Below are positions 5,649-33,598 of a stretch of 59,486 nt of DNA, in pieces. Made by a program: the position numbers and the translations under genes. Position 1 is the stretch's first letter; each line of letters starts with the position of its first letter. The DNA is from an uncultured bacterium (GTDB taxonomy: Bacteria; CSSED10-310; CAZUFC01), in NCBI GenBank assembly GCA_964619725.1, contig CAZUFC010000045.1, positions 1 through 59,486 of the forward strand. The letters are read 5' to 3'. The notes below the pieces were generated by a model, which had not been told where the DNA came from, made no database searches, and worked only from the letters and a program-made list of their open reading frames with translations.

Positions 5649-5655
5649 CCTCCGG

Positions 5656-10215: not shown

Positions 10216-10662
10216 TCATCGCCCGGTTTTTATTTTCTTTTCAATCATCCAGAGGCTGCAGGCAATAAGAAAGCAGGTTGTTGCGATTGTCATAAAGAGC
10301 GTGAAGAGAGTCCGGGGTGTTTGCAAAGCTTCGTTTTTGTTGTTGAACCGGAAGGAGACGTCGCTTTCTAAAATCGACAGGGCTTCTTCATTTTCCAGTA
10401 ATTTCAAACGTTCTTCGTCCAGCAGCTTCTGTATCGGTTTATCTTTGACGTATACTTCCACCCGGTTCTGCGAATCTTCGAGTGTGATTTTCATATTCTG
10501 ATGCGTCCAATAATGATCTTGAACCACGAGGCTGACGATTTGAGAGAATGGTCCGATTGCGGCGAGAAAAGATGAAAAAGCAATAATCATCAAAGCCCGT
10601 TTGAATGTTTTGATGATTCTGCAGGGCGATTCCGCCCGGTTTTCTGCAGATTTTTTACCCAT
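10216..10662 (-). CDS. Two-TM hypothetical membrane protein, last gene of the RHS operon
   Basis: Two hydrophobic segments; 8-bp gap from the upstream gene. Confidence 0.65.
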   Translation of the reverse strand: MGKKSAENRAESPCRIIKTFKRALMIIAFSSFLAAIGPFSQIVSLVVQDHYWTHQNMKITLEDSQNRVEVYVKDKPIQKLLDEERLKLLENEEALSILESDVSFRFNNKNEALQTPRTLFTLFMTIATTCFLIACSLWMIEKKIKTGR

Positions 10663-10670
10663 CTATTTTT

Positions 10671-11036
10671 TTACTGTTCAGGCATTAATATTCTGTTGCC
10701 GTAGAAATTTATCAAGGCCTGGCGAGTATCCTCCTCAGAGAGTCCAGAATCCAGTAATGATTCGATCATTCTTCTCATTTCATTGGCGACCATGCAATTT
10801 TTATGCTCCAGCAGCGGTTCTGTGCTCCCGCATGCAGGCAATAATCCGGTGGCAACCCGCTTGCCGGCTTCAGAAAGCGGAAAGTCGGGTATGGAGAATT
10901 CCGCTCCCATCCCTGAATCCATATAATGCGGATCATGATTAGCGTTGCCTTTAACGAGAAAGCCGACTATAAAGCCGACGCCAAACACCAGAATCAGGCT
11001 TCCCGTGATGAGTATGGTCTGTAATTCTTTACTCAT
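10671..11036 (-). CDS. Single-TM protein with CcmH-like helical domain and two Cys
   Basis: 'PAC...KNCMVANEMRRMIESLLDSGLSEEDTRQALINFYG' resembles the CcmH N-domain; start overlaps the upstream stop. Confidence 0.55.
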   Translation of the reverse strand: MSKELQTILITGSLILVFGVGFIVGFLVKGNANHDPHYMDSGMGAEFSIPDFPLSEAGKRVATGLLPACGSTEPLLEHKNCMVANEMRRMIESLLDSGLSEEDTRQALINFYGNRILMPEQ

Positions 11037-13428
11037 TTATGTCGTCCCCTTTCTGCATTTGATCCATAAACTGATCAAAAAGAAAGTATTGCAGTTCATA
11101 ACGTTTTATCTGTTTTTCATCAGGCATGTTGTATACTCTGCCCATGTATTTCCGGCTCAGGGATATACTTCCCAGGACCAGCAGGACTTTTCCCTCGCCT
11201 GCTCTGCGTTCTGCAATGTAAAATTCATCCTCCGGCATGATTTCTTCCGGAACGGAAATCAAATCAGCTCCTTTTACTTCGATAGACGGCGCTTTCATCC
11301 CGGATTCGCCTTCCACTCCTCCTTCGTCTTCATAAATTCCATCATCCTTGCGTCGACTTTCGACCCGGATGCCGAAAGGTTCGACAAAAGCGTTAAGCGT
11401 TTCAAAATAATCTTTTTCATGATAATCCAGGATCATTAATTTTCCTCCTGACCTCACGAAACGCTCAACCGCCTGGACGTCCTCATTGCTGACCTCGCCC
11501 AGCGGATTGAGCAATACCGCCATATCCGTCGCTTCCATCGCCTCTTTCAAAGTATCATAGATTTTAGGATATAAATTGAGCCTTTGAGTATTGACGAAGA
11601 AGGTGTCGAAAACTCTGAATTCATCCGGCGAATCGTATTCCAGCATTGTGGCCAGCCGGAAATCGCCGTATTCTTTCGTGAAGGCGAGTTCCTGATAGGG
11701 TCTTTTCAGTTCGGGAAACCGGTATGCGGAATGATGGATTTGTGAGATTATGTATCCCGTGACGATGATGCCCGAAACGGCGCCGAGCCCGAACATGACG
11801 ACTGCGGTTTCTCTGCGGGAAAAATGCATAAGGAAAAGCGTCGCCGTCAACAGAAGGATGCCTGTGATCAGAGCGATCAAATTCGTCGTTCGCGAAGATT
11901 GGCTTCGATTCAGATAAGCTATACTGCCCATGGCCAGCTCTGAGACTCCATCGAAGAAAAGCGAGAAGTTGGAAAACATGGTGCTGTCAGTATAGGCCAG
12001 GACTTTTCCTTTGCCGAAAGGAACCGCTGCAGACAGAAGAAATACGCCGTATCCTTCCTCCGAATCCGGGGTTATGTCGCCGAAGAAGTTAATATGAGAA
12101 TAATCCACCCATTCCCGTCCTAATCCGTAACCGACCAGAACCCTTTCTCCGCAATAGGGTATTTTAACGGTGCAAGTGGTCTGAAACTCCAGGTTTTCAA
12201 CTTCCAGGACCGCTGGATGGGCAAAAAGCACAGGCACGGAAAAATAAGAAGGATGTCCGGTCGTCAGATCGAACGTATCGTCGTAATTGAATTTCATGCC
12301 GAACCGCAACGCTACTTCATTCAGAAATCCATTCATGCCGAACAGATTATTATGGTCTCCGATCAGATATACTCCGCCCCCTTCTCTTACATATTCGACA
12401 ATAGCTTCTATTTCCTCTTTCCTATACCTCATCGTGGGGCACTTCAACATAACGACGTCGTAATCGCTGAGAAGCTCGCTCGTTATTGGTTCCGTCTCAT
12501 TCACGTCGACTTGATAGAAATGTCTCAACCATTTCATCAAAATCCGGTAATTATATGTCGATTGCTCTCCGTAAGTAACGCGGTCAAAAGGTATCTCGGT
12601 CCATTCCCAATCGCTGTGCACCTCTTCTATCAGGATTCGGCCCTCTTTCTCAATTCCGCGATCGATATAGCCAGCAGCCCACGAAAAAGAAGCCGCAGTG
12701 AGAAAAGCAAGAGGCAATACAACCAGAGCCTTTCCTTTCGATTTTATTTTTTTGTCCTTGATTTTCCATTGAGGAACGAACGTAAACGCAATAGATGTCA
12801 GAACGGCGAGGGGGATCATGCTGATCAGTATCAGCAGTGGATTCCAGAAAATATCCAGTCTGGGGTGACTGGAATAAAAAACGATTATTCCCATGAATCT
12901 GAGAATCGCATAGATAATGGAAAGTCCGGATAACAGCAGGACGCTGCGCAGGAATTTATAATTAAAATAATAAAGCATTACGGCGCCGCCCCCTACAAAA
13001 AGCAGTATCGGAAGCAGGGCCATTTTTTCGATCGAAGCGTTGATGACTCTGATGTGGGCGAAATCCTGCAAATAAATCATGAATTCATGAAAAGCCGTAT
13101 CGAATCCCAGTATATTAAGAGATCGGGAGGCTATCTCGGAGAGAAAGGGAATTCTGTTTTCCAACGGCGCGGCCCATAAATAGATGAAAACTAAGACGCC
13201 CTGAACGGAAAAAATTGCGATTAAGGCGGGAAGGGCTTGTTTGGCAGTCCAAATGAATTTTTTTGTTTTATTCTTTTTCGAGGATACGACGGTCATCCCC
13301 AGGAAGAAAGCCGCCAGAAAGGCGATAAAGAAATAGAGAAGGCTGTCCCATCTGATTCTGGTATAAAGACCCAGTGCGTATAGCCACCCGGAAGCGGTAA
13401 TTACAATCGCAGTCCATAATAACGTCAT
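11029..13428 (-). CDS. Large membrane protein: multi-TM N-region plus two GldG/DUF4350(GIFT)-like alpha/beta domains
   Basis: TM bundle; 'YVREGGGVYLIGDH', 'GKGKVLAYTDS', second copy 'FVRSGGKLMILD', 'GEGKVLLV'. Confidence 0.7.
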   Translation of the reverse strand: MTLLWTAIVITASGWLYALGLYTRIRWDSLLYFFIAFLAAFFLGMTVVSSKKNKTKKFIWTAKQALPALIAIFSVQGVLVFIYLWAAPLENRIPFLSEIASRSLNILGFDTAFHEFMIYLQDFAHIRVINASIEKMALLPILLFVGGGAVMLYYFNYKFLRSVLLLSGLSIIYAILRFMGIIVFYSSHPRLDIFWNPLLILISMIPLAVLTSIAFTFVPQWKIKDKKIKSKGKALVVLPLAFLTAASFSWAAGYIDRGIEKEGRILIEEVHSDWEWTEIPFDRVTYGEQSTYNYRILMKWLRHFYQVDVNETEPITSELLSDYDVVMLKCPTMRYRKEEIEAIVEYVREGGGVYLIGDHNNLFGMNGFLNEVALRFGMKFNYDDTFDLTTGHPSYFSVPVLFAHPAVLEVENLEFQTTCTVKIPYCGERVLVGYGLGREWVDYSHINFFGDITPDSEEGYGVFLLSAAVPFGKGKVLAYTDSTMFSNFSLFFDGVSELAMGSIAYLNRSQSSRTTNLIALITGILLLTATLFLMHFSRRETAVVMFGLGAVSGIIVTGYIISQIHHSAYRFPELKRPYQELAFTKEYGDFRLATMLEYDSPDEFRVFDTFFVNTQRLNLYPKIYDTLKEAMEATDMAVLLNPLGEVSNEDVQAVERFVRSGGKLMILDYHEKDYFETLNAFVEPFGIRVESRRKDDGIYEDEGGVEGESGMKAPSIEVKGADLISVPEEIMPEDEFYIAERRAGEGKVLLVLGSISLSRKYMGRVYNMPDEKQIKRYELQYFLFDQFMDQMQKGDDINE

Positions 13429-13431
13429 ATT

Positions 13432-15918
13432 TCAAATTCCCTTCGAGTCTAATCGCTTCAGGAGTTTTCTGATGAAGTCGACGTTGCCGTCCCAGTAAAC
13501 TTTTTCTGCTTCGAGCGTGACGTCGTACAGATACCTGGTATCGGCGATGAGAGTAAAGCCGCCTTTTCCGACAGGTCGAAAAGCGACGACGGGGTAATTA
13601 AAACGATCTTGATGCAGGACCTGCACAGGCTTTTTCTTATTAAGGTTGATGATCGGCCAGGCTTCCATGAAATGAGGCGACCTTTTCAGAAGTCCGAGCA
13701 AATCCTGGTCCAGAGTTTTATGAATGATGGGAATCGGACCCAGCGGAATGGGTGAGACATCCAGTTCGACGGACTTGAGGAGATTTTCAGAGCCGTGTTT
13801 TTCCTCATATCCGACACTGAGAATGACGAATCCGCCTTTTTCCATATATCTATGTAGGACTTGAATTTCCTTTTCGGAATAGGATTTCATAGGCGCTACG
13901 CTGATGAAAAATTTTACATTGGTTAAGGTTTCATCCCTTATGGGAATCGTTCGGTTAAACACCGGCAGATATCCGTTTCGAGCCAGGTTGACGGGCAATC
14001 CGACCAACGAACTTTCTTCCCAGTAAGCCGACGTATAAAAATTCACGTGAGATGCGTCGACCATCGCAATTTCATCCTCCAAGGGCGACAATTCCTGCCG
14101 GCTTTCCGTCAGAGCGTTCGCAGCAGCAAAAGCGGCGGCAAATATCAGAACCGGTACGGTTGCCGTCCATAGTTTTCCCGAACCATACACGGATAAAACA
14201 AGCAAAACGACCGATACGATGAAGAAAAAGGCTCCGGCCCATGGCTGTAAAGTATTCCAAACGGGTAAACCGGGCCGCGAAAGGTAATGAAACAGCGTCC
14301 TGAAAAATTCGTGAGAATGGAAAGTGACATTGTTCTGAAGCGGAGTAGTATCGCCGAAGACGATGACTTTACCGCGGCCTTTTCTCGCTTCCGCCACGAC
14401 AGGCAGATCGCCCAGAGGTTCTCCCAATTGATAATAATAGTCTCCCAGGAACGCATTATCGGGTTTCATCCTGTCGCCGACGTCGGAAAAGGCGTATTTA
14501 CCGGAAATCACGGGATAGGATGGATATCTAACCCACAGCGAAGCTCCTGTGCTTTGCTGCAGTCTTTCATTGGTGTTGTCGAGCATGCCCGTGGCCGGAT
14601 GAGGGAATATCTCCAGGTCATGATGCCAGTGATGCGAAGTAAAAGCGGAATCAAAACGGAACTTTGTTTTCACGGGTTCCAGCAGATCGTTCAGAGGGTC
14701 CATCGTTCCTCCCACGTCCGTGTGATCCCCCATGACCATTAGTGATCCGCCCTCTTCCACGTAAGTCTCCAGCGTCTTCTTGTCTTTTTCGCTGAAATAC
14801 CAGTCGGGATTGATGATTACATAGACGGAAGATTCCTTGATTTCTTCCAGGGATAGATTCGTTTGCCTGGTCTGTATCTCGGTACGGAAACCGGAAGCAT
14901 GCAGATAGCGGGGCAGCATCCCGAACATGCCGGAAGAAATTATGCCGTAGCGCCCCTTCGTCGGAACTTCCCATCCCGAAATTTCTCCCGTATTGAACGT
15001 TATTTTGGGATTCTCAGTTTCTCCTCCGAAAGGCGCGAATCCAAAAACAAGGCCGGCTGTCAGAAATGATAAGGCCGTCGCAGCAGTAAGTCCTCTTTTT
15101 ATTTTCTTTCCTGACTCCAATGACTTTGTTGGAGGTTTCAGCAAAAGATATATGACAGGGACCGCAGCAACAAGAAGGTATATCAGGGGCACGAATACCG
15201 CCGCCGCATCAGGAAATTCGCTTCCGTATTTCATACCGCCCGGATTCCCGTAAAAATACACCTGAAACAATGTCGATAATCGAAAAACCGCCTCATGACC
15301 GAACGCAATGCTCAGAATCCATATAAACAAATTGTAACCGAACGCCAGAACGCTGAACAACCTGGCCGCGCCTTTCGAAAGAATAAAAATAGAAAGACAG
15401 AGCGCCGAAACAGAGACAAAAGCCCAGAATCCCGAATATGTCGCTCCCATACAGACGTGAGTTCTGAACAGATCGCCCAGGGTGCAGCTAAATGCGTATG
15501 AAAAATCCTGAATTATGTTCCAGAACCAGGGGAACAAGCGGCTGAAAGCCTGCAGCATCCCCAGAAACAGAGCGGTATAAGTTAAAGCGGCATAATGCCT
15601 GTTTTTTCCGGCAGTAATTCTGTAGCAGGCTGCCGGAATGAATGCTGCGAGCATGACGCGCGAAAAGTCGGGGAAAATAAAAGGCGAGAGGAAGCCGATG
15701 ATGAGCAGAAGACCTGCTTTCAGAAGTCCCGCCGGAGCATTATGCTCTTCTTCAGGGATGTTTGCCGCAGTTCTTCTTTCGTTTATAGCGATCAGCGTGA
15801 ACAGCAAAAGAAAAAAAATTCCGTAGAATCGATTGGTCGCAGAAGAGAATCGTCCGAGATTCTCAGCAAGAAAATTAATGCCGATGAGGAAAAGAGCGAA
15901 GTTCAATCCTTTTATCAT
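13432..15918 (-). CDS. Large membrane protein paralogous to 11029-13428 (multi-TM plus two GldG/DUF4350-like domains)
   Basis: 'YVEEGGSLMVMGDH', 'GRGKVIVFGDT', second copy 'YMEKGGFVIL', 'GKGGFTLIAD'; RBS GAAGGA. Confidence 0.7.
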   Translation of the reverse strand: MIKGLNFALFLIGINFLAENLGRFSSATNRFYGIFFLLLFTLIAINERRTAANIPEEEHNAPAGLLKAGLLLIIGFLSPFIFPDFSRVMLAAFIPAACYRITAGKNRHYAALTYTALFLGMLQAFSRLFPWFWNIIQDFSYAFSCTLGDLFRTHVCMGATYSGFWAFVSVSALCLSIFILSKGAARLFSVLAFGYNLFIWILSIAFGHEAVFRLSTLFQVYFYGNPGGMKYGSEFPDAAAVFVPLIYLLVAAVPVIYLLLKPPTKSLESGKKIKRGLTAATALSFLTAGLVFGFAPFGGETENPKITFNTGEISGWEVPTKGRYGIISSGMFGMLPRYLHASGFRTEIQTRQTNLSLEEIKESSVYVIINPDWYFSEKDKKTLETYVEEGGSLMVMGDHTDVGGTMDPLNDLLEPVKTKFRFDSAFTSHHWHHDLEIFPHPATGMLDNTNERLQQSTGASLWVRYPSYPVISGKYAFSDVGDRMKPDNAFLGDYYYQLGEPLGDLPVVAEARKGRGKVIVFGDTTPLQNNVTFHSHEFFRTLFHYLSRPGLPVWNTLQPWAGAFFFIVSVVLLVLSVYGSGKLWTATVPVLIFAAAFAAANALTESRQELSPLEDEIAMVDASHVNFYTSAYWEESSLVGLPVNLARNGYLPVFNRTIPIRDETLTNVKFFISVAPMKSYSEKEIQVLHRYMEKGGFVILSVGYEEKHGSENLLKSVELDVSPIPLGPIPIIHKTLDQDLLGLLKRSPHFMEAWPIINLNKKKPVQVLHQDRFNYPVVAFRPVGKGGFTLIADTRYLYDVTLEAEKVYWDGNVDFIRKLLKRLDSKGI

Positions 15919-15978
15919 TTTGGTCCTTCTTTAGGGAACGGATGAGAACGGCGATGCCGATTCTTGCATGACATTAAC

Positions 15979-16009
15979 AGGGCAGCCGAGCAAGAAGTCC
16001 GGCTGCCCT
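15979..16009 (-). terminator. GC-rich hairpin just after the RHS stop (leaky terminator or mRNA stabiliser)
   Basis: AGGGCAGCCG ... CGGCTGCCCT perfect 10-bp stem; weak U-tract on the minus strand. Confidence 0.6.
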
Positions 16010-16033
16010 TTCAATGACGCAATTTATAACAAG

Positions 16034-16567
16034 CTAATTGGAAAATTCGCATTTATCGCAAGCTGATGTATCACACACGCTGCCTCCGCAACCGCTGCCG
16101 TGACATACGCTCTTGTTGCATTGCGAAGCGTTGCAATTCGATTTATGACAACCCGTGGTTCCGCATCCTGAAACATAGCATTTACTGCCTCCACGGCATG
16201 CGCTCCCGATACACCTGGTTTCATGACAGAGACTGCCGATGCATTGACTCCCGAAACACCCGCTGGCTATACAGACGCTGCCCATGACGCAGGCGCTGCC
16301 TCCGCAGACGCTGCCCACGCACAAGCTGCCGATGCAGGCGCTGCCGTAACACTTGCTCCAACCGCAGGCGCTGCCTCCGCAGGAACTGCCCAGACATGCG
16401 CTGAACTTACAGGCGCTCAAACCGCACCCGCTGCCCACGCAGGCGCTGCCCCCGCACCCGCTGCCTCCGCATATGCTTGTCCGGCAACCGCTGCCCCCGC
16501 AAGCGCTGTAATAACATCCGCTCAATATACAGCCGCTCATAGGATTCCATATCCACCATACGATCTC
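16034..16567 (-). repeat. 32 tandem xx[S/T]xC coding repeats (about 15-nt period) forming the RHS tip
   Basis: Read directly: PMSGC ILSGC YYSAC GGSGC ... GGSVC DTSAC; 30 pentamers, 2 hexamers, 33 Cys in total. Confidence 0.97.
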
Positions 16568-19500
16568 GCCGGTCGGATCAAGATTATTGATGGGATCGTT
16601 GCCGGTGTATATGTAACCGATGGAATCCATGCCTTTCACGTTGGTCGTCAGGCGCTGGCTGTAAAGCGGCGAACTGAGCGCATCGGTTATGTTCGAATCT
16701 CTGCCGTATGAATACTGCGCATGAAGCGTGCTCCGCAAAGAATCGGGTCTTACGGGGTCCAGAGACAGAAAACGGCCTGTCTTGCGGGAGTATAACCGGG
16801 CTCTGAAGTAATACAGATCATTTCCCTCGCTTATCAGTTCACGAGACGTAAACTGGAATTCGTTCGGCACATTTTCCTGAGATTCGCGTTCTTCGCCGAA
16901 AGCCAGATAATCGTAAGAGTTCTGGATAGTCTCTGTGGAATCCACAACCTGGAAAACGGAATTAAGCTGATTCCTTACGAAGAAGAACTTCTCCATGTTC
17001 TTCTGTTTCATCAGCAAAGAATCGATGCCTGCTCCGTAATTGAATACGGTCGTTTCGCCTTCCGTCGTCTGATATAATTTGTTCAAACCTTCATACCCGA
17101 ATTCCGATTCCACTCCGTTTATGGTCTGTTTCATCAGTTGACCGTCAGGCGTATATTCCAGAACAGCCGTCAGCGTCGGTGCATCTATCGCAGTTACCCG
17201 GTTCTCATAATCGTATTCATACAGAACCGTGTCACCGTCATAGTTCTCCAACGTTAAATTGCCGTTGGCATCATATTCATAGGTTATGGTTTCTCCGTTA
17301 GTCGTCTCGGACGTCAGCCGATAACCGCCGTCATACTCGTACGTCGTGGTTAAACCGTCGTCAAACGCCAGAAGCGTCCTATTGCCGATGGCATCGTATT
17401 CAAACGTCCTCCCCATAAGAACAGTCGTGTCCGTCGGGTCCTTGCGTACCTCTCGCGTCAGACGCCCGCCAACATCATAATAATAATACACTATCTCGTG
17501 ATGCATCGTTAAATCCGGCCTCTTTATCTTCTGTTCGCTCCTGGTCACTCGTCCCTGGGGATTCCTTTCGTAAGTGGAAGAACTGATCAATGCTTCTCCG
17601 GAATCGTAAGTATGCTGCGCCGTCATCATTCCGAACGCATCATATTCATGCATCGTATAAGTCCCGCTTCCATAGGTTTCCTTCGTCATCATCTGAAGAG
17701 GCGAATATTCGTAACTGCTGACCAGTTCACCGTCTCTCATGACCCTGGTGAGGTTTCCCTGAGAGTCATAACCATAATGAGTTTCCGAGCCGAACGGATC
17801 AATGACTTTCGTGCGTTTCCGAATGGAATTGTATTCATAAGTTATTTCTCTGTCGTTTGAAACGTCATACACCTTGGTCAACTGCTGCTCGGAATCATAG
17901 GCATATTGAAAATCAGTGGACGGTCCCGTCACCCTGGTCACTTGAGCGATGGCGTTCCGCTCGATGTTCGCCTCACTCATATCGGGATAACTGATTTTCG
18001 TTAATCGGCGAAGCCTGTTGTATTCATAAGTGATTTCGTGGCCCAGCGGATCGGTTTTCTTGGTGATGTTGCCTATCGCATCATATTCGAATGTTACTGT
18101 TTTTCCTGCAGGATTGGTTATGCTCGACAGCCTGTCGAACGCATCGTAAACCGTGGTATATGTGCCGCCATTAGGGTCTTCAACGCTCGCCGGCCGACCC
18201 TTCGGGTCCAGCATCGTCGTGAACATTCGGCCGTTCGGATCGATTATTCGCGTCAGTTGATTCTTGGCGTCAAAGAAATATTGAGTTATACCGCCTACGG
18301 CGTCGATCATTTTCGTCATATTGCCGTGAGAATCATATTCGATGTAAGAGACGCTTCCGTTAGGGTCCAGGGTCTTGGTGGATCGATTGAACCCGTCATA
18401 TTCCACAGTCGCTTCGCCGCCCCTGACGTTGTTCACCTTCGTCACGTTGCCGTTGGCGTCGTAATGTAATTCCTGAGCTCCCCCGTTCGGATACAAAGAC
18501 TTCGTCAACCTGGAATTGAGATCGTATTCATAAAAATATTCCAATCCATGAGATGTCATCTTGGTTTGACGGCTCATCACGTCATATTCGTATTCATTGA
18601 ATACGCCCGTACTCCTGTATGACTTCGTCGTATTGCCCATTTCATCATATTCATAATACTCTTCAATGCCCGTCGGATATATTGTCTTGGTCCGCTGTCC
18701 CCTTGAATCGACTTCATATTCGAATACCATTTGGTCGGTCGTGCCGTAAGCCAGATAGGTTTTCGTCAGATTGCTGTACTGGTCATATTCGTTATAGGTC
18801 ACCGTGTCGTCCAGGTCTATTAACTGCGTCAGTCGGTTGAATTCAGGATCGAACGTCTGGTTCCACAACAGTCCCCCCGGATATTCCATCTGAATCAGGT
18901 TCCCCTTCTCATCATAGCCTGAAATTATGTCGTCCCCCAGTTCGTTCGTATATTTCGTCATGTTGAAATTCTCGTCATATTCGTAGAACGTGTGATGGTC
19001 AAGAGGGTCCACCAGCTCCTGTTGCGTTCCCTTATCCGGGTCATAATAATGGATCGTTTCATTCCCGTGACTGTCCGTCATGATCGTCTGATTAGCGCCC
19101 GGATTATAGTCGAAAGTAAACGATCCGGCAAAATAGGTCTGCTTGGTCGTTCGATCCTGCGCATCATATTCCATGCTTAATTTTTCATTGCCTCTTCCGT
19201 CATAGATCGTCAGAAGATTATGCCTGTCGTCGTAGAAATACTGCTGCGTGTGTCCCATCGGATCGACCGCCATGGTAAGATTGTCCTGTGAATCATAATA
19301 ATACTGGTACACTTCAGAAGCCGCATTCATCAGAAAACGTATTTTTCCGCTGGGCCAGTAAGTAAGCGTCAATTCCCGGCCTGCATCGTCTATTATCTTC
19401 GTCAAAAGCTGATCCGCATCATATTCGAATGACACCTCGTTATCGTTGGGGTCCCTTATCGCCGTTAAAACCCCTTCCGCTCCAAATTCATAACGGGTCC

Positions 19501-20023: not shown

Positions 20024-20222
20024 CTGGAACCTCCTTACGCAAGGCGAAACGCGTTGCCGCGTTCTTCTAATGAAATTAAAAAAATCGTTAATATGCAGAA
20101 CCGTCCCCTCATTAAAAAACTCTCCTTAACAATACTCTTTCTTTCACGGCCCTGATATTCTTCGAATTCGAAAAAATTTTTGCTTTGGGTTAAACTCCCA
20201 TTCCTATGATGTTCCGTTCGTC

Positions 20223-20251
20223 ATTGTAATATTCCGAAAAACGCGTGTCAA
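20223..20251 (-). promoter_or_regulatory. Sigma70-type promoter P1 for the RHS operon
   Basis: Minus strand TTGACA-17bp-TACAAT. Confidence 0.7.
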
Positions 20252-20308
20252 ATCCTTTCTCCTGAAATTCAACCATTACCGGAAATTCTCTCAAGCAACG
20301 TTATCTTA

Positions 20309-20337
20309 ATTATAAATCGCAAGTCGCTTTAAGTCAA
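20309..20337 (-). promoter_or_regulatory. Sigma70-type promoter P2 for the RHS operon
   Basis: Minus strand TTGACT-17bp-TATAAT. Confidence 0.7.
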
Positions 20338-20464
20338 AAAAAATATCAGCCGCCTGTGATGAAAACAAAAAACATGCCTTTACAATATGTTGTCCGTTGT
20401 CTTCGCTTTAAGGAGAATCAGATCGATTTTTCATCGAAAAAACTTTTTAATCGCAGCTTAATAA

Positions 20465-20493
20465 TTGACAAATAAATTGAAAAAGATTAAATT
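20465..20493 (+). promoter_or_regulatory. Sigma70-type promoter for the rightward operon
   Basis: TTGACA-17bp-TAAATT. Confidence 0.55.
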
Positions 20494-21109: not shown

Positions 21110-21306
21110 TTCGAGGCGTTATCTGTCCCGTCAAGGATGTTAAGGGACAGGAGAGGGCGTTAATCGCTAATTCGATTTTCAGTTTGACTTTCAGAGAGAT
21201 TGAGGTTATAAAATAAATACATTTTTCTGCCAGTTCTGGATGCGATGAACGAGAAAATGACGCGTGAAAAAATATATTCATTTAATCAAATATCCGGAGG
21301 TGTGAG

Positions 21307-27300: not shown

Positions 27301-30300
27301 GCATTGGCTTTCCCATCGCCTATCGTCGTGGATTTAACCGCTCCGACTGCGGTCATCTGGGTTTCTGCCGATACCGGCGAGAATCCGCTGACAGTGCACA
27401 TGCACGGCAATTCAAGTTACGATCCGGACGGTACGATCGTTTTCTGGGAATGGGACTGGGACGGCGACGGCGCTTATGATTACGGCTCGGAAACAACAAG
27501 CGACATTTGGTACACATACTCTGGGGTCGGAACTTACGAGTTGACCCTGAGGGTTACTGACAACCACGGCTCCATGGGAATTGACACGCAAACCATAGAA
27601 GTCTTGAATTCGCATCCTGTCGCTCATGCCGCGGCTGACCCCCTGGAAGGCGATGCCCCGTTAACGGTCTCTTTCACCGGCACGGGCGAAGACCTGGAAG
27701 GCGATATATCCCTGTATGAATGGGACTTCGGAGAAAACCAGGCATTCTTTGACGATTTTGAATCCGGCACGTCGCAATGGACGTTGGACGCTCCCTGGGC
27801 ATTAACCTCCAATTCCTTCCATTCGCCTACTCACTCCTTAACGGAAAGTCCGGACGGTGATTATGAAAATAATCTGAACGTTTCGGCCGTTTCCAGTCAA
27901 TTCGCTCTGCCGGCGGGACAGGCCATACTCAAGTTCAGACACAAGTATGAGATTATCAGCTCCGACTACGCCAGGGTCGACATCTCAACTAACGGAGGCG
28001 TCGCCTGGACTCAGATCGCTTCTTATACGAACGGAACGCAGAGCATGTGGGAAGAAGTGTTGATGGATATATCGGATTACGCTGACAATGCGGAATGTCA
28101 TTTGAGGTTCCGTTTCAACAGCAATTCCTCTCTGGTCGCAGAGGGATGGAACATCGACGATGTGAGCGTCACTGTTTTCGAGTGGGATTACAGTTCTACG
28201 GAAACGGGCGTAACCGATCATATCTACAACACGCCCGGAGAATACATGGCGACGTTACGCGTGACGGACGAAGGAGGTTTGACCGACACGGATTTCGTTA
28301 ACATAACAGTCAAACAAACGGGAGCGCCTCTGGCGACGGCTTCGGCTTATCCGACACAGGGAGCGGCTCCGTTGCTTGTGGACTTCATTGGCGAAGGAAC
28401 CGACCCTGACGGTACCATAGAATTGTATGAATGGGATTTCGAGGGAGACGGAACTTGGGATTACACGTCGACAGAGACCGGAATCACCGATCATTTATAC
28501 ACGGAAAATGATGTTTATTGGGCCGTTTTAAGGGTCACCGACGATTCGGGATTGACCGATACAGATTGGGTAATTATACGGGTCGGTATGCCGGAGTCGC
28601 TGCCTTATGCTTATCCGCAATCGGGCGCGGTTCCGCTGACCGTGCAGTTCATCTGCAACGGCAGAGACCCTGACGGAACGATCGAGTACTATTACTGGGA
28701 TTACGATGGAAACGGTACCACGGATTATACGTCGAGAGTTTCAGCGGCAGTCAATCATACTTATTCCAACGCCGGGGTTTATGAAGCGACTTTAACCGTT
28801 GAGGACAACGACGGTTTGCAGGATTCAGCAAGCATTACCATTACGGTTACGGCTTCCGAAGCGCCGGTAGCTGTCGGAAACGGGACTCCGGATACGGGAA
28901 CGGCTCCGCTTGAAGTTACGTTCACGGGGTACGGCACGGACCTGGATGGGACCATTGAATTGTTCGAATGGGACTTTGACGGCGACGGAACATATGATTG
29001 GAGTTCTGCGACAACGGGGAATACGACGCACACGTATAATGATTTAGGAGATTACAGGGCCGTGTTCCGGGTTACTGACGACGATTCGTTGACGGGAACC
29101 GACGTCGTATGGATAAACGTCAACCAGGTAGGGAGCCCTACCGCATTGGCCGATGCTGATCCGCTGAGCGGCGATTCGCCTCTTACCGTCGATTTTATGG
29201 GTGAAGGAACCGATGAGGATGGAACCATAGAATTGTACGAGTGGGATTTCGACGGTGACGGCGCCTATGATTGGAATTCCTCTTCAACCGGTTATACCTA
29301 TTATATTTACAGTGTTCCCGGTCTTTATGAGGCTGTTTTGAGGGTGACCGACGATGAAGGCCTTACGGACACGGACAGGGTTAATCTAGCCGTCGGTATG
29401 GGACTCACGGCAGCCAGAAGCAAGGAATCTTTCGATCCTACGGTCGGCGAGACGGTGGAAATTCAGTCCACGATTACGGGAACGACTACCGTTACGATCA
29501 GAATCAATAATCGCGATAACGAGCACGTCAGGTTATTGGTCGATAATGTTGTCAGAGCTCCCGGGTATTATTCCGACATCTGGGACGGCAAAAACGATGC
29601 GGGCAATTACGTTCCTTCAGGGGCCTACTTCTTTGTCATCGATTACACTATTGAGGGAACCGAATATACCTACGACCTCACCGCCAGCGCAGGAAGTCAA
29701 ATATTCCCCACCGTCAGTTACTCCTCAAGTTACAATCCCCTTGAAGACGATTACCTGGCGGCCTCTTTCACGCTAAGCGCCCCCGCAGAGATAACGACCT
29801 ATGTCTCGCCTTTCAGCGGAGGCGCGGGACAGCGAGTAAGGACCATCCATATGCGCAAGCCGATCAAGAGCGGTTCTAAAGTCGTGGTATGGGACGGAAC
29901 TGCGGACGACGGCACTATCGCTCCTCTCGATCAGTCCTATGTTATGGCCGTACTGATGTGGGCCCTGTCGGACAACTGCATTATTGTCGCCAGCGACCCC
30001 GTGGTTGCCGATATCGCAGCAGACCCCAACTTCTATAATCCCAAGAATCCCTATCAGCTCGATCCAAATGCTCCCCTGAACTTCACCTTCTCCTTGACGA
30101 AAGATGCCGACGTCGTCGTCACCATCAGAAATCAGAGTAATTTCCCGGTAAACAACTACCTGCTGCCTGGCCTGGAACGGGGCGAAAATCACTTTTACTG
30201 GGACGGTTTCGGCAATACCGACAGATTGATGGCGGATGATCTTTATATCGTCGGATTCCAGGCACAGGATCAACTGGGCAATCAATCCATGAAAATGCAT

Positions 30301-30324
30301 TCCATTATTAAAGTGTTCTATTGA
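21307..30324 (+). CDS. 3005-aa secreted multidomain protein: dockerin, two NHL/YVTN propellers, 17 PKD modules (3 with inserted jelly-roll domains), C-terminal FlgD-Ig-like domains
   Basis: GDINESGRVDGEDL...ADLNKDGYVDDNDL (dockerin); repeated DGSVWVAD..N..V (NHL); repeated YEWDFDGDG..LRVTD (PKD); WDGKNDAG..VPSGAY (FlgD). Confidence 0.92.
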   Translation: MRALREDQRSSFRGGGLFRAGMAFVLCLSAIFCFWGAAIGGGIAGDINESGRVDGEDLWIFSLARDTEEGDNDYNPAADLNKDGYVDDNDLLILSKNFGFTGRGLYLWVGNTDDDEVVKLLLSSAEEKLRVAGICNGPISVATNNSDGSVWIASYYDHEAIKLSVTGEELLRITGFYYPRSIDVNESTGEVWIADRDHHKIVRLSPDIPDGYDIETQTGYHATIHGFYYPEDVSVNERNNTVWVADTSNGKVYRLYPGVPDGYDVTGEAGYHATAAGFYNPRAVSVNTSDGTCWVADTSNNQVVKLAPSGTIELIRIGGFSSPQDVAVNPVDNTCWVADYTNDRVVKLDSAGNILAEVGGMDNPYSVAVNPEDGSCWVADYYNHQVVKLIVSGAESLRKGGFDNPKAVDVYYAEPPYNAPSAVAEVYPTNAQIDETINFSGTGETPVGDIVLYEWDFDGDGVYDWSSSDTGDTTHSYSENGVYNPVFRITNDHYLSAVDYSNIVRVGVLQAMAGADPTTGTAPLQVTFSAGYFDPVDGQIESYQWDFDGDGFFDSFQNATQNPQNINHTYANAGTFEAVLKVTDTGNVTATDTVTVEVEKALPEAEAEAVPEEGPPPLEVTLTGTGNDPDGSVIFYEWDYEDDGTFDWFSSTGGETVHTYTLTGEHTARLRVTDNDGQTAEDTVNINVYSIAPSAEAAADPMKGNVPFAVDFTGSGTDPDGYIVLYQWDFDGDGVYDWSNFAHGNTTYVYTQPGNFSARFRVVDNSGAEAFDTVEIKALPEGYPFAVAEADPLETFINDPIDLIGENSYDPDGTIVLYEWDYSGGEIFFDDMESGVGGWTAESPWGQVTTDYYSAVTCWTDSPGGNYSNYTNAAIISPMLTIPDAIETRLKFWHRYHTESCCDECRVEISSDGGTSWDELIYYRGTQNEWTQADLDISDYDDNSQVQVRFRLDADYSVTYDGWYVDDVSITQDFVPDYSSPDTPNINVSYDKAGLIYPVLRVTDDEGNKDTDAVALTINAGLPTAVAEADPETGPAPLTVDLIGENSTDPNGTIDLYEWDFEYIYFQDDAEGGAPLMWYADPPWGLIEDAYEGDYAWTESPDGNYPNNYNGAITSLPFSLTTATNPELTFWYKLSASSSYNYTDGGYVEISTDGGADWIELAYYNYYDNTTDWVKETFDLTPYAGESVVKLRFRFYSDSSSYWDGWFIDDILITEPFSADYTSADTPNTTHEYANEGYYCAALRVTDDDGQSDMEMVTIHPNVGPAADIIWPEEGHVFQRGNIAFKGEGTDADGHIVLYEWDFDGDMTFDWSSEEAGAAVYEYPDEGAYTANFRVTDNDGLTDTVTVNFSTMMYPPEITSFTASPMEGSVSVYVYFNVDAHDPDGTVEQYEWDWDGDGTYDETTTYDNVSHYYTSPGTIEVKCRVTDDELLTAEETVEIYLKTYGYPTATADVDPYYGYAGHNFNFEGSGTDPWPGSIVLYEWDFDGDGTYDWSSAVEGDTTYAYSETGAFEAVLRVTDDEGYQDTDSVELYVDYAGGGDMSVWVTNLGNENVIRYVGGVKQWHVVDFYDPHGISADPNDDSVWVADYGNHQIVELDADGNELHRIDGFDNPWDVDVYYADGSVWVSDYDNDQMVLLDSDGVEIGRYGGFNNPRGIDVDQSDGSVWVADYYNHAVVKLDLAGNEIGRLAEFDNPNWVSVNQEDGTCWVADRDDDFVVLVDADCTTELLQVSGFYYPFRVAAGNDGSVWVSDLDRDRVYHVSADGTYLSETQMYNPYGIAQDPGTLNAYVVDYYTYKLYQIALAGNVLSEISGGMYYPWDIDVLPGYTAADNPPDATASADPITGDAPLSVTFTGSGTDDGTIVAYEWDFDGDGVWDYSSDTDGNTTHLYEESGIYDPVFRVVDDNGFSGFVSDIIIRVGPVQAWATAQPNSGPANLYVTLNGGGSSPFGDGRIHLYEWDYEGDGIFDWSSTSHANIGHTYEPGSYVPVLRVTDGEGNQALAFPSPIVVDLTAPTAVIWVSADTGENPLTVHMHGNSSYDPDGTIVFWEWDWDGDGAYDYGSETTSDIWYTYSGVGTYELTLRVTDNHGSMGIDTQTIEVLNSHPVAHAAADPLEGDAPLTVSFTGTGEDLEGDISLYEWDFGENQAFFDDFESGTSQWTLDAPWALTSNSFHSPTHSLTESPDGDYENNLNVSAVSSQFALPAGQAILKFRHKYEIISSDYARVDISTNGGVAWTQIASYTNGTQSMWEEVLMDISDYADNAECHLRFRFNSNSSLVAEGWNIDDVSVTVFEWDYSSTETGVTDHIYNTPGEYMATLRVTDEGGLTDTDFVNITVKQTGAPLATASAYPTQGAAPLLVDFIGEGTDPDGTIELYEWDFEGDGTWDYTSTETGITDHLYTENDVYWAVLRVTDDSGLTDTDWVIIRVGMPESLPYAYPQSGAVPLTVQFICNGRDPDGTIEYYYWDYDGNGTTDYTSRVSAAVNHTYSNAGVYEATLTVEDNDGLQDSASITITVTASEAPVAVGNGTPDTGTAPLEVTFTGYGTDLDGTIELFEWDFDGDGTYDWSSATTGNTTHTYNDLGDYRAVFRVTDDDSLTGTDVVWINVNQVGSPTALADADPLSGDSPLTVDFMGEGTDEDGTIELYEWDFDGDGAYDWNSSSTGYTYYIYSVPGLYEAVLRVTDDEGLTDTDRVNLAVGMGLTAARSKESFDPTVGETVEIQSTITGTTTVTIRINNRDNEHVRLLVDNVVRAPGYYSDIWDGKNDAGNYVPSGAYFFVIDYTIEGTEYTYDLTASAGSQIFPTVSYSSSYNPLEDDYLAASFTLSAPAEITTYVSPFSGGAGQRVRTIHMRKPIKSGSKVVVWDGTADDGTIAPLDQSYVMAVLMWALSDNCIIVASDPVVADIAADPNFYNPKNPYQLDPNAPLNFTFSLTKDADVVVTIRNQSNFPVNNYLLPGLERGENHFYWDGFGNTDRLMADDLYIVGFQAQDQLGNQSMKMHSIIKVFY

Positions 30325-30364
30325 TAAAAATTGAGAGGATTTTCGATGTAAAGGAGGATAAAAA

Positions 30365-31267
30365 ATAAAAAATTTTTTCTGGAAATTAGGAATAATAATG
30401 GTTGCGGCCGCGTTCGCAGCGGCCGCTTCGCAAGCCAAATCGAAAATAGCCTTCATACAGCTCGACGATGACGGACAGTGGGACCTCTGGATGATGAATG
30501 AAGACGGATCGGAGCAGGAACGTCTCACCGACGGCGAAATAGCGGAAAGGTTTCCTTCCTGGTCGCCTGACGGAAAGAGGATCGTGTGTGCCGCCAATAC
30601 AGGAGACTTGAAAATCATCGATGTTGAAAAAGGTACGGTGGAGACTCTGCAAACTCCCCCGAAAAGAAACGCTGAACCGGCCTGGTCGCCTGACGGAAAA
30701 TCGATTGCTTTTATAAGTTATCCCCCGGTTCCCCAGAGAAGGAGTATCCTGTGGATCACAGACATGATCAAAGGGGATTGGATAGCGCGAAGCATTCCTC
30801 TCCCCAGCGCTCAGAAAGGCTTCCCATGCTGGTCGCCGGACGGAAAAAAGATCGCTATGTCCTTTCTGAAAGAAATCAAACCCGGCGGACCCGTGGAAAA
30901 CATCAGTATTCTGGATATGGAAACAATGGAATTTGAGCTCTTGATACCAAGCGATGAGCATGATAATTTACATCCTGCCTGGTCTCCTGATGGAAAAAAG
31001 ATTGCTTTTTCATCGAATCGCAGCGGTAATTATGATCTTTGGATGAAAAATATTGACTCGGAAGAGCTTATTCAATTAACTAAAAATAAGGCTTTTGACG
31101 GCGACCCCACCTGGTCGCCAGACGGTAATTCAATCGTATTCGTCTCTTCCAGGAAAGGGAAAAAAAATATTTGGAGCCTGAATCTTGAGACAATGCAAGA
31201 GACGCAAATCACATTTAATAATCGGGGAAGCCGCGATCCGGCTTTTTATCCCGTTTTTGAACAATAA
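30365..31267 (+). CDS. TolB-like PD40 beta-propeller, secreted
   Basis: Five PxWSPDG repeats; signal peptide; start is either ATA 30365 (after AAGGAGG) or ATG 30398. Confidence 0.9.
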   Translation: MKNFFWKLGIIMVAAAFAAAASQAKSKIAFIQLDDDGQWDLWMMNEDGSEQERLTDGEIAERFPSWSPDGKRIVCAANTGDLKIIDVEKGTVETLQTPPKRNAEPAWSPDGKSIAFISYPPVPQRRSILWITDMIKGDWIARSIPLPSAQKGFPCWSPDGKKIAMSFLKEIKPGGPVENISILDMETMEFELLIPSDEHDNLHPAWSPDGKKIAFSSNRSGNYDLWMKNIDSEELIQLTKNKAFDGDPTWSPDGNSIVFVSSRKGKKNIWSLNLETMQETQITFNNRGSRDPAFYPVFEQ

Positions 31268-31312
31268 AGTATGCGCTGCCGCTCAAACCCATCAGCAGGA
31301 GGGGATGTCAGT

Positions 31313-32443
31313 ATGAAAATAAGGAAAAAATTGATGAACAGCGTTTTTTCGACAGCTTGCCTGGTTGCAGCAATTTGTTTGTTTTTTTGTTTCGCTTCGG
31401 CAGACGCCAGTCCGAAAATTTCAAAGGTAGGATTGCAACCGGGCGTTATTAACGTGCTTCAGAGTGAAAGAGCCGAAATTTCTTTTCATTTAAATGAAGC
31501 AGCCCAAGTCACCATTAATATTCTCGATCCGGACGGTTGGCCGGTAAAGACCCTGATGCAGGGGCAAATGCTTGAAGCGGGGTATCGGCATGTGGGATGG
31601 GACGGGACCCAGGATAACGGAGAGCTGGTTCCGGATGAAGCCTATTCCATTTACATCAAAGCCCGTAATGAATCCGGGGTTGATGTTTTTAATCCTTCCG
31701 CAGATTCCGGAGGCATGGCGGTCCTGGTTTACCCGGAAATCGAAAACGAAAGCTGGCCGCTCAGGGCGTCCTTTTCGCTCAGGCGTCCGTTAAGGGTTCA
31801 AGTGCGCATGGGAATCGACAAAGGTCCTTTGCTGCATATTCCGGTCGACTGGCAGGCGCTTGAACCAGGCTCGCACACGGTATCCTGGAATGGAAGAACT
31901 ACTGAGGGAAGGCGATTGACGGAAAATCCTGAAAACCTGAAAGTCCTGATCGATGCTTACACGCTGCCGGACATCGTCGTTCTTACGCGCGGTAATCCCA
32001 AGGATTTTGCTCTCTATAAATTTCAGCAGGCAAAAATGTCAGGCGTGTGGGACAATCTTATGGATATGGGAATGAATATGGATATGAGGCCCAGTCCTGC
32101 GGGTTTTCATAATCATGCCGACAGAACTAGAATTGAGGACAGGGAGCCTGGTTTCGATATGTCGGTCGGGATTAATGAGCAGTCCAGGGAAAAAATTCTT
32201 CAGGTAGACGTCAGTCTGGATGAAATTACTGAATGGGTTATGGCGCAAAGAAGATTTGAAATTAAATTATACGTCAACGGTGAACTGATCGTGGAAGAGG
32301 AACAGGGTATGGCGCCCTATAGTTTCTATACTGATTGGAATGATGCTTGGGATGCTTATGATGATTTATTGATTACGGTAAACGTTGCGACGCTGTACGA
32401 CCAAGTGGGAGGCAGCAGCCGCATTTTAAACATTGGCCCCTAG
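31313..32443 (+). CDS. Secreted FlgD-Ig-like domain protein
   Basis: Signal peptide; WDGTQDNGELVPDEAY and WNGRTTEG motifs shared with the C-terminus of the giant protein; ATG 31313 after GGAGGGG. Confidence 0.8.
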   Translation: MKIRKKLMNSVFSTACLVAAICLFFCFASADASPKISKVGLQPGVINVLQSERAEISFHLNEAAQVTINILDPDGWPVKTLMQGQMLEAGYRHVGWDGTQDNGELVPDEAYSIYIKARNESGVDVFNPSADSGGMAVLVYPEIENESWPLRASFSLRRPLRVQVRMGIDKGPLLHIPVDWQALEPGSHTVSWNGRTTEGRRLTENPENLKVLIDAYTLPDIVVLTRGNPKDFALYKFQQAKMSGVWDNLMDMGMNMDMRPSPAGFHNHADRTRIEDREPGFDMSVGINEQSREKILQVDVSLDEITEWVMAQRRFEIKLYVNGELIVEEEQGMAPYSFYTDWNDAWDAYDDLLITVNVATLYDQVGGSSRILNIGP

Positions 32444-32491
32444 CTGAGGATCCCAATGGTAATTTTAATTCTCTAAGGGAGGGAATCCACA

Positions 32492-33598
32492 GTGAAAAAA
32501 GTAAATAAAAAATTGTTGACGTCAGCGCCGGGAGGTTTAAGTTACTTAACAGCCGTACTGCTCTTTTTTATGATGGGCTTATGCCCGTTTTCCGTTAACG
32601 GTTCATACTTAATGATGGATGCGCCGGAATCCGTCTATCAGCTTCATGATTTCGATGTTGAAATTTATGTTTTCGATGTTTCTGACTTGTACGGCGTAGC
32701 CTGTGACGTCCTCTATACGGAAGACCTCGTGGACGTGCTCGATGATGATCCCGGTTCCGAAGGTGTTCAGCCGGCTCTGACCGAGGGAGAATTCCTTAAT
32801 GAGGGAGGGACGGAAGAAACGATAATGAGAGGAGCTTTTGAGGATGGGAAAGTCGAGGGAAGGCTTGTCCTGGGTCTGACTCGATCTGCTCAGATTCCGG
32901 GAGTCGACTCGGGGTTCATACCTCAGCATCTGATGACCGTGAGTTACAAAGCCGTCAATGTGGGATTCGCCGAATTTTCTTTTGACCAGGAAGGTATGGT
33001 CGATTCAGGCGAAAACCCTTTGAGTATTGACGGCGCCACCGGAGTGACCGTCGAAATCCTGGCTTTTACGAATCATCCGCCCAATATGCCCTCCAATCCT
33101 TATCCGGCAGACGGCGAAACCGGTGTACCCTTATCGCTGCAATTGACCTGGGAGGGCGGAGATCAGGATGAAGACGACATAATTACATATTATGTATATA
33201 TGGATGAAACCGATCCGCCGGAAACGCTCTACGACACAGTGACCAATCCCTGGGACCAGACGGTTTGCACCGTCGATGCAACCCTTGAAATGGGGCATCA
33301 CTATTACTGGAAAGTAATCGCAGAAGACATGTACGAAGGACTCACGACTGAAGGACCCGTCTGGGATTTCGTGGCTGCAGGGCCCTCGCCCACGCCGACG
33401 AATACACCCACGCCTACGCTCTCACCTACTTCAACCTTTACGCTCACTCCTACTTTAACCTACACGCCGGAAGAAACGCCTACGCCTTCCGTAACCCCAA
33501 CAGTCGCTCCCGTTCCCGCAACCTCTACCGCCGGCCTGGCGCTGCTCGCTCTCATCATTTCCTTCGGATTCTTGAGAACGTTCAGAAAGAAAGATTAA
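32492..33598 (+). CDS. Cohesin-domain surface anchor with Fn3-like module, Pro/Thr linker and IPTL-CTERM-like sorting signal
   Basis: FDVEIYV.DVSDLYGV..DVLY...V / LVLGL / LMTVSYKA...G cohesin-like pattern; NHPPNMPSNPYPADG...YYWKV; TPTPT linker; VPATSTAGLALLALIISFGFLRTFRKK. Confidence 0.75.
   Translation: MKKVNKKLLTSAPGGLSYLTAVLLFFMMGLCPFSVNGSYLMMDAPESVYQLHDFDVEIYVFDVSDLYGVACDVLYTEDLVDVLDDDPGSEGVQPALTEGEFLNEGGTEETIMRGAFEDGKVEGRLVLGLTRSAQIPGVDSGFIPQHLMTVSYKAVNVGFAEFSFDQEGMVDSGENPLSIDGATGVTVEILAFTNHPPNMPSNPYPADGETGVPLSLQLTWEGGDQDEDDIITYYVYMDETDPPETLYDTVTNPWDQTVCTVDATLEMGHHYYWKVIAEDMYEGLTTEGPVWDFVAAGPSPTPTNTPTPTLSPTSTFTLTPTLTYTPEETPTPSVTPTVAPVPATSTAGLALLALIISFGFLRTFRKKD

Follow-up and report, generated by a model that had tools for sequence, protein, structure and literature searches.

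A membrane protein pair, leader-bearing precursors and an exported RHS shell in an uncultured bacterium: a candidate maturation system outside the cytoplasmic membrane

The contig CAZUFC010000045.1 of an uncultured bacterium (59,486 nt, here called the window) contains a gene cluster at positions 10216..33598 that centres on an RHS protein with a cysteine-rich tip. A preliminary description, made from the letters alone, had read it as a surface-anchored RHS cargo apparatus encoded by ten genes on two divergent arms, and all ten open reading frames were verified (Table 1). The left arm encodes the RHS protein, two paralogous membrane proteins that we call MemA and MemB, a CcmH-like protein and a protein with two transmembrane (TM) segments. 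The right arm encodes a ChrB_C-domain protein, a giant protein, a PD40 propeller, a FlgD-Ig protein and a protein with a Pro/Thr stalk. The domain labels of the giant, ChrB_C, PD40 and FlgD proteins were matched by Pfam and NCBIfam, and the CcmH match was found again but lay below its cut-off. Nine of the ten products have a TM or signal segment. The claim that all are exported or membrane-bound fails for the PD40 protein when it is called from its ATG, but an in-frame ATA, 7 nt after a GGAGG, would restore the signal segment and is probably the start of the gene. For the two-TM protein no homologue was found among the 160 loci described below; it may be a displaced immunity or accessory gene.

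Table 1. Features of the cluster in the window (positions in CAZUFC010000045.1)
Feature	Position	Strand	Remarks
Two-TM protein	10216..10662	-	Last left-arm gene; two predicted TM segments
CcmH/NrfF-like membrane-anchored Cys protein	10671..11036	-	CcmH match 19 bits, cut-off 25 (weak)
MemB	11029..13428	-	7-TM bundle, GIFT, TM hairpin, GIFT; candidate maturase subunit
Exosortase-like part of MemB, residues about 94-200	12829..13149	-	Arg177, Lys135 (catalytic-Cys position), Trp195 (near His position)
MemA	13432..15918	-	MemB paralog with same layout; invariant His399, Asp423, Glu500, Asp523, Thr524, Gln528, Arg647
RNA hairpin between RHS and MemA	15919..16033	-	Strong, z -5.1
RHS protein	16034..20023	-	1329 aa, signal peptide, DUF6531, RHS repeats, autoprotease R1084/D1089/D1149
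Predicted released core, RHS residues 1154-1329	16037..16564	-	176 aa, 17.1 kDa, 33 Cys, C-x-x-S-x pentads
Leader motif SPLYSQRL, RHS residues 1118-1125	16649..16672	-	Loop between the two autoprotease aspartates
Two sigma-70-like sites toward left arm	20223..20337	-	11 of 12 each
Sigma-70-like site toward right arm	20465..20493	+	10 of 12
Exported ChrB_C-domain protein	20534..21109	+	Frame open from 20465; GTG at 20534 is the likelier start
Giant exported protein, 3005 aa	21307..30324	+	Dockerin, NHL, PKD, MAM-like, C-terminal double FlgD
Double-FlgD C-terminal module of giant	29392..30321	+	Part of the giant conserved in other RHS loci
PD40/TolB-like propeller	30365..31267	+	ATG at 30398; ATA at 30365 gives full signal peptide
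Exported FlgD-Ig protein	31271..32443	+	FlgD domain match
Exported protein with Pro/Thr stalk and IPTL-like sorting tail	32492..33598	+	IPTL-like 14.8 bits, cut-off 20.5
Terminator-like hairpin with A and T runs	33609..33652	.	Between convergent genes, z -8.1

Transcription signals were searched for in the same region. The best three sigma-70-like sites of the scan all lay inside the 20223-20493 gap between the arms, as back-to-back promoters would, but the total number of such sites was at chance (28 versus 25.2 +/- 4.9). At the right end, where a strong terminator had been claimed, a strong terminator-like hairpin was confirmed. Because a weak hairpin follows the ChrB gene (z -2.4; window 21110-21215) and a promoter-like site lies at 21184, the giant may have its own transcript. 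The hairpin between the RHS and MemA genes could lower the enzyme transcripts relative to those of the substrate.

The RHS protein matched DUF6531, PF05593 and TIGR03696 (34.7 bits, cut-off 32.5) and contains YD repeats, an RHS-associated core, the Arg-Asp-Asp residues R1084, D1089 and D1149 and a PxxxxDPxG motif. Sec-exported YD shells with cleaved and enclosed tips of about 15 kDa are known (bioRxiv 10.1101/2025.11.11.687626). By analogy with a solved Teneurin-like protein (TLP), and since the three autoprotease residues are present, the RHS protein would be cut after about residue 1153, freeing 176 residues; the motif and the size of the tip suggest that it cleaves itself and encloses the tip. 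Of the 32 intervals between the 33 tip cysteines, 29 are exactly 5 residues. Ser or Thr stands at Cys+3 in 30 of the 33 cases; among 2000 shuffles the mean was 8.3 and the highest value 17. The tip is unlikely to have arisen purely by repetition of DNA, because the codons vary and only short degenerate 15-bp arrays are seen. No toxin family matched the tip in the Pfam and NCBIfam scans, and within the clade of this RHS protein the tip is conserved across phyla and not polymorphic.

The long loop between the two autoprotease aspartates contains the motif SPLYSQRL. A search with the tip region gave 14 other RHS proteins, of which 12 have SPL[F/Y] in the same loop and 2 a variant of it. In the window's own genome, an RHS protein on contig C12 has a short loop and a paralog on contig C9 a long loop without the motif. 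The preliminary description had overlooked both this motif in the core of the RHS protein and the strict coupling of Cys to Ser.

The distribution of the membrane pair was followed with a MemA alignment search, which found 139 relatives in genome contigs and another 167 in metagenomes; from each set 80 were retained, making 160 loci. The 80 genome loci cover 15 named bacterial phyla and archaea, with 23 from Thermoplasmatota, and since near-duplicates and relatives are among them, as is this large Thermoplasmatota block, the locus counts are not independent. MemA is followed by MemB on one strand in 126 of the 160 loci, in 117 of these within 400 bp; among the other 34, many contigs are short or cut. 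At 50% identity, 1,261 clusters matched the MemB profile at E <= 1e-30, a number that probably counts both paralogs and fragments. Searches of 13 other genomes of the phylum with the queries used here gave neither MemA nor the C-terminus of the giant.

Beside the pair stand exported proteins with a signal peptide, an SP[L/A][F/Y]xxxL leader and a Cys-rich core. A single iterated leader profile stopped at 46 matches and missed two precursor classes, and it was therefore replaced by a fixed rule with a genome background. With this rule, 86 of 158 loci yielded a leader-bearing precursor, as did 48 of the 64 that have at least 3 kb on both sides. The density of precursors was 49 per Mb at the loci versus 1.6 per Mb in the window's genome. 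The 107 matches were mostly co-oriented with the pair (102) and within 3 kb of it (100). When the 16 misses among the well-flanked loci were inspected by eye, 11 showed a Cys-rich precursor with a variant or untranslated leader. In five isolate genomes, the precursor profile matched solely at the MemA/B locus in four and had no match in the fifth, which is archaeal.

The precursor cores fall into different classes, namely S-x-C pentads, T-C repeats, C-S repeats and few-Cys hydrophobic tails. In the pentads, Ser is found at Cys+3 in 525 of 544 and Gly at +2 in 358 of 544. The coupling of Cys to Ser or Thr exceeded the shuffle null in the S-x-C class (483/505, null 311), the T-C class (327/396, null 251) and the C-S class (71/72, null 39). 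Free precursors frequently end in Fn3-like or cohesin domains. A conserved leader, a variable core and adjacent conserved partner proteins are the logic of a RiPP, a peptide made on the ribosome and modified after translation, and all three are seen here. The core of the system is the membrane pair with its leader-bearing precursor, mostly without RHS, and not the PKD stalk of the giant. The dedicated membrane maturation factors postulated earlier are supported.

Of 111 representatives of the neighbours of the pair (same strand, at least 220 aa, within 2.5 kb), 103 were scanned for protein families at E <= 1e-8; the 8 left out were RHS, giant, FlgD, ChrB, CcmH-like, precursor or already-scanned representatives. 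None of the 103 belonged to the LanC/LanM, YcaO, MNIO or SPASM families, and one was a housekeeping radical SAM protein. A conserved exported protein of about 350 aa occurs in L008, L009, L019, L121 and 15 other Thermoplasmatota-type loci (e.g. L121:14985-16034), mostly 65-300 bp 3' of the precursor. It has an invariant His190 and Cys267, in motifs that we take to recall caspase/gingipain proteases, and is a candidate leader peptidase; Pfam and the PDB gave no support for it. Another conserved exported protein, some 300 aa long, looks LolA-like by eye and has no Pfam match; it adjoins free S-x-C precursors in 12 loci (among them L037:2559-3443, L040:7993-8865 and L049:8401-9375). Very large precursors adjoin the pair at L041:1053-4190 (1045 aa, 120 Cys) and L103:14825-17632 (935 aa, 69 Cys and a cohesin). 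At L051:9251-15100 (Ignavibacteriota), a transposase-like frame splits MemA and no precursor is in view.

In nine fetched loci, eight of them distinct, the precursor is the tip of an RHS protein. At the eight distinct loci the RHS gene is accompanied by an upstream FlgD-ended giant in six, by PD40, FlgD and CcmH-like genes in five each and by ChrB_C in three; two of the contigs end within the cluster and L090 shows no giant, PD40, FlgD or ChrB in view. Since these genes recur together, both arms travel together, mostly as one operon. The preliminary description was to be given up if the arms never co-occurred elsewhere, and they do. The divergent layout is local to the window; elsewhere the genes are co-stranded, except for ChrB in L004. 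Homologues of the CcmH-like protein are confined to 7 RHS/FlgD-type loci among the 160, and homologues of the FlgD-Ig protein occur in five of the eight RHS loci and in L005. Other neighbours of redox or metal type are ResA-like proteins in L085, L087 and L088 and a ChrB_C-rhodanese in L004. In a FastTree of 61 MemB sequences, the S-x-C RHS loci cluster with the window (support 97) in a group that also takes in one long-branched free precursor, and the C-S RHS loci lie elsewhere beside a free C-S precursor. This separation in a tree made by a quick method and with long branches suggests that the precursor was captured by RHS twice.

Dockerin-cohesin tethering, proposed earlier as part of the machine, was not borne out. 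The giant of the window has a dockerin (PF00404, 24 bits, cut-off 22.9), which fits a genome-wide kit with 38 cohesin matches, but the giants of L004 and L084 have PKD and two FlgD domains with no dockerin or NHL match. In the protein at 32492, the supposed cohesin anchor, no cohesin was detected by Pfam, by a profile of 28 cohesins of the genome or by PDB sequences, all of them sequence searches that a divergent cohesin could escape. Only its second domain has homologues in the fetched loci, and none of these are RHS loci.

Two further giants (59% and 46% identical) are encoded in the window's genome, together with RHS genes that share the N-terminal motif, but there is only one copy each of MemA, MemB, ChrB, FlgD, the CcmH-like and the two-TM genes. 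At the second RHS-giant locus (C9:6317-20364), the giant faces an RHS protein that has a Gly/Ala hydrophobic tip and lacks the leader; between the convergent genes lies one for a membrane protein of 146 aa. The contig ends C233, C323 and C206 probably form a third locus, as judged by complementary coverage without sequence overlap, and carry a short charged tip. Variable tips thus stand on a shared carrier, as in polymorphic toxins, and the RHS protein with the double-FlgD giant is a separate carrier that is used in the same genome with unrelated tips. Large RHS genes on C81, C17 and C98 are each followed by a gene for an exported 830-980-aa protein with 31-36 Cys. Elsewhere in the window (3738-8928), a multi-TM protein without a family match lies beside a distant GH149 phosphorylase-like gene (93.5 bits, cut-off 1150).

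It could be argued that the cluster is an ordinary polymorphic RHS toxin locus, placed by chance beside an unrelated membrane pair, and that the tip needs no maturation. The carrier does occur in the same genome with other tips and without the pair, and a small membrane gene directly follows the RHS gene in six of the eight distinct RHS loci. However, the RHS core contains the leader of the free precursors in precisely those cases in which the pair adjoins, and the arrangement recurs in eight distinct loci, probably with two origins, which makes such a coincidence very improbable. The earlier statement that there is no immunity gene holds for the position directly downstream of the RHS gene in the window and becomes doubtful with the small gene found in this slot elsewhere. 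In three loci (L004:8594-9094, L085:6807-7535, L088:8522-9058), the small gene encodes hydrophobic repeats in which Gly recurs about every five residues, a counterpart to the Cys/Ser period of the tip.

To learn what kind of proteins MemA and MemB are, structure models were computed from alignments of 106 (MemA) and 96 (MemB) sequences, leaving out locus L160. Both sequences match GldG/IFT52-type GIFT profiles, as the earlier label GldG-like had implied. The models were confident (pLDDT 92-93, pTM 0.92-0.93) and share a plan of a TM bundle, a GIFT domain, a TM hairpin and a second GIFT domain. The fold searches were made with the whole models and their match lists were filled by the GIFT domain, which resembled IFT52 (Z 22.4, rmsd 2.4, 207 aligned), site-1 protease (Z 19.6), OST48 (Z 18.1) and also GH42 accessory domains. 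From the Lys-rich loops, both GIFT domains are predicted to face outward. Many polar residues are invariant, and an Asp-His follows the central strand in MemA and MemB alike.

The N-terminal bundle of MemB was compared with the exosortases. Against a profile of 22 exosortases, residues 97-198 gave an in-register alignment (score 32, E 1e-4, HH probability 58%), whereas 13 controls scored at most 16.2 with a probability of at most 0.6%. There was no Pfam PF09721 match in MemB, and the exosortase-like nature of this bundle has moderate support. The exosortase triad consists of Cys, Arg and His, and archaeosortase is required for cleavage of its substrates and for lipid attachment to them (PMC6098224; bioRxiv 10.1101/2023.06.07.544157). 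In MemB the Arg is kept in 95 of 96 rows, whereas 69 of 96 have Lys or Arg at the position of the catalytic Cys, where Cys itself is not one of the five commonest residues. Another cysteine, Cys419, is conserved in 88 of 96. In long MemB fusions only transthyretin-like Ig domains and one thioredoxin-like tail (CPFC) were found.

These features raise the question of whether MemA and MemB are an export, sorting or anchoring device, in which the exosortase-derived domain cleaves or lipid-anchors the leader protein and leaves the core unaltered. The exosortase-like domain itself, the known role of archaeosortase and the presence of GIFT domains in OST48 and site-1 protease agree with this. It is improbable in view of the replaced catalytic Cys, of the leader in RHS forms, which lies 1100 residues from any TM helix, and of the Cys-Ser/Thr coupling, which would be left unexplained.

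The pair could also be a folding or metal-loading complex. The tip would then be a Cys-lined beta-solenoid, a disulfide-locked or metal-thiolate column that is protected by the shell, displayed by the giant and non-toxic, which comes closest to the view of the preliminary description. The strict five-residue period with Gly at +2 and Ser at +3 fits such a solenoid, as do the thiol-redox and metal-type neighbours (the CcmH-like, ResA-like and ChrB_C-rhodanese genes and the CPFC tail on one MemB), Cys419 of MemB, the Fn3-like or cohesin ends of free precursors and the conservation of the tip across phyla. However, the T-C, C-S and few-Cys hydrophobic cores have the same leader and pair without having the period, the Arg/Lys site has no obvious use in a foldase, and the redox genes are missing from most loci. 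We regard this explanation as unlikely.

We weigh it as somewhat probable that the cluster encodes an undescribed RiPP-like, leader-directed maturation outside the membrane and that the product of this maturation is enclosed in a Sec-exported RHS shell. Two modules would be fused, a widespread leader-directed maturation system and an RHS shell carrier with exchangeable cargo. Sec would export the RHS precursor and the CcmH-like protein, or ResA in some loci, would hold its thiols reduced. MemA and MemB would bind the SP[L/A][F/Y]xxxL leader and process the Cys and Ser/Thr core. The shell would close, and the aspartyl autoprotease would cut near residue 1153 and double as the leader peptidase. 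The giant, FlgD and PD40 proteins would hold or deliver the loaded shell. The data themselves show the gene content and its co-occurrence, the conserved leader, the Cys-Ser coupling and the folds, from which these steps of binding, modification, cleavage, packing and delivery are inferred.

Several chemistries are conceivable under this leader-directed maturation, none of them likely by itself. Ser/Thr-Cys thioether cross-links, with the Ser/Thr activated by a lipid-derived group at the MemB Arg/Lys site, may be formed, and it is equally possible that no new bond arises beyond disulfides or metal-thiolates. That a donor in the membrane gives up a sugar, acyl or lipid group to the core is slightly more doubtful, and any other reaction is quite unlikely. 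Cross-linking is our lead because the coupling persists in unrelated cores, ATP is not available outside the cytoplasmic membrane and MemB has a cationic site in a fold whose archaeal member is linked to lipid attachment.

A number of observations weigh against maturation by the pair. We know of no precedent for an ATP-free dehydration outside the membrane. C-x-x-S-x fits the register of the pentapeptide beta-helix, so the Cys-Ser coupling could be structural. The domains of IFT52, OST48, site-1 protease and GH42 enzymes that GIFT matched are non-catalytic. The exosortase Cys and His are lost in MemB, with a Trp near the His position, and against exosortases the N-terminal part of MemA does not rise above the controls. 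In one precursor class the coupling of Cys to Ser/Thr is not enriched (42/100, null 47), in 25 of the 86 loci the 260 residues that follow the leader of the precursors contain fewer than 5 Cys, and in 5 of the 64 well-flanked loci (L015, L020, L051, L062, L066) no precursor is in view. The precursor class tracks the MemB tree (7 changes versus 33 when shuffled), for which kinship alone suffices, and the non-independence of the loci noted above belongs here as well.

The nature of the cargo was considered separately. The exchangeable tips, the gene in the immunity slot and the TLP precedent favour a toxic cargo, whereas the conserved tip and the Ig-like or cohesin tails on free precursors speak against it, and we hold an antibacterial cargo to be slightly likelier than a structural one. 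The earlier 'probably non-toxic' is thus doubtful, with paralogous RHS-giant loci carrying unrelated tips. Taken together, the preliminary observation is partly confirmed and its interpretation partly supported. In its fullest form, the proposal would be a new RiPP class made wholly outside the cytoplasm of bacteria and archaea by a GIFT/exosortase-derived pair that cross-links Ser/Thr to Cys, with lipid-derived activation instead of ATP or tRNA, capture by RHS at least twice, the RHS protease as leader peptidase and a shell that holds a heavily cross-linked 17-kDa cargo; that all of this applies is distinctly unlikely.

If leader-directed maturation is confirmed, it would define a widespread, unannotated protein-maturation system, assign to GIFT domains, which are known from IFT52, OST48 and site-1 protease, a role in prokaryotes that can be tested, reveal an exosortase fold put to another use in the absence of its protease triad, and join modified-peptide biosynthesis to RHS cargo delivery. 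The chemistry is directly testable, because cultured hosts that are not pathogenic are among the loci (Sagittula salina, Methylobacterium nonmethylotrophicum, Polyangium sp. and Exilibacterium tricleocarpae).

The system was finally compared with known ones; no description of it was found in the open literature, the search not extending to subscription journals and preprint supplements. In its logic it resembles a RiPP pathway and in its carrier a TLP, but by the features compared here it does not fit type VI Rhs effectors, TLPs, CefA/CefB, lanthipeptides or exosortases. It is not a type VI secretion system Rhs effector, since the protein has a signal peptide and no PAAR and the genome (91% complete) has no PAAR or Hcp; VgrG and TcA had no Pfam match among the 34 scanned window proteins, the genome-wide search covering PAAR and Hcp. 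The earlier view of a Sec-exported RHS protein with thiol-rich cargo, independent of type VI secretion, is supported. With the TLPs the cluster shares the Sec-exported YD/RHS shell, the R-D-D autoprotease with PxxxxDPxG, a small tip (enclosed and about 15 kDa there, predicted to be enclosed here), a small downstream gene (here in most of the RHS loci), and adhesion and NHL modules for display (bioRxiv 10.1101/2025.11.11.687626). A TLP is one chain of FN-plug, NHL and shell, whereas here a DUF6531 shell without NHL stands beside a separate NHL/PKD giant, whose conserved part is the double FlgD and which has no NHL match in L004 and L084. The leader insert and the membrane maturase pair are not described for TLPs in the consulted sections of that preprint.

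MemB resembles exosortase/archaeosortase (PF09721) in residues 97-198 and in the triad Arg, but with the Cys-Arg-His triad incomplete and two GIFT domains fused it does not belong to this class, and the precursors have an internal or N-proximal leader instead of a C-terminal sorting tail. The RiPP system CefA/CefB (NF038108/NF038107) also has Cys at every fifth position. The CefA model has 65 positions, in contrast to the exported 1329-aa RHS protein, and membership was rejected, with the tip at 19.3 bits and a free precursor at 24.9 (cut-off 30). CefB, the radical SAM partner, was over its cut-off in none of five genomes (best in the window's genome 37.7 bits of 600). Three further CefA matches in Exilibacterium were antisense or compositional repeats, and the CefA model also matches antisense repeats.

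Lanthipeptides have a leader, a core with matched Cys and Ser/Thr, and adjacent enzyme genes, and all three have counterparts here. Unlike in lanthipeptides, the substrates here have signal peptides and the candidate enzymes are oriented to the outside; LanB, LanC and LanM are not found nearby, and LanC is not over its cut-off in the window's genome. LanC-type genes are present elsewhere in two of the five genomes searched. Bufferins and other MNIO-modified exported metal-binding RiPPs have a signal peptide and a Cys-containing core, as the precursors here do, possibly also with a metal role. They differ in their MNIO enzyme, which was found neither among the scanned neighbours nor over the cut-off in the window's genome.

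In CrpA/CrpC of Methanococcus voltae, a large Cys-repeat protein is thioether cross-linked by a neighbouring enzyme (PMC13692751). This enzyme is a radical SAM/SPASM protein acting on C-x-x-Q/D, and RHS and the GIFT pair are not met in the consulted part of that paper. The substrates of the two systems are alike in their Cys repeats, their leader-like motif, which is N-terminal in CrpA, and a core that is predicted to be a beta-helix there and would fit one here.

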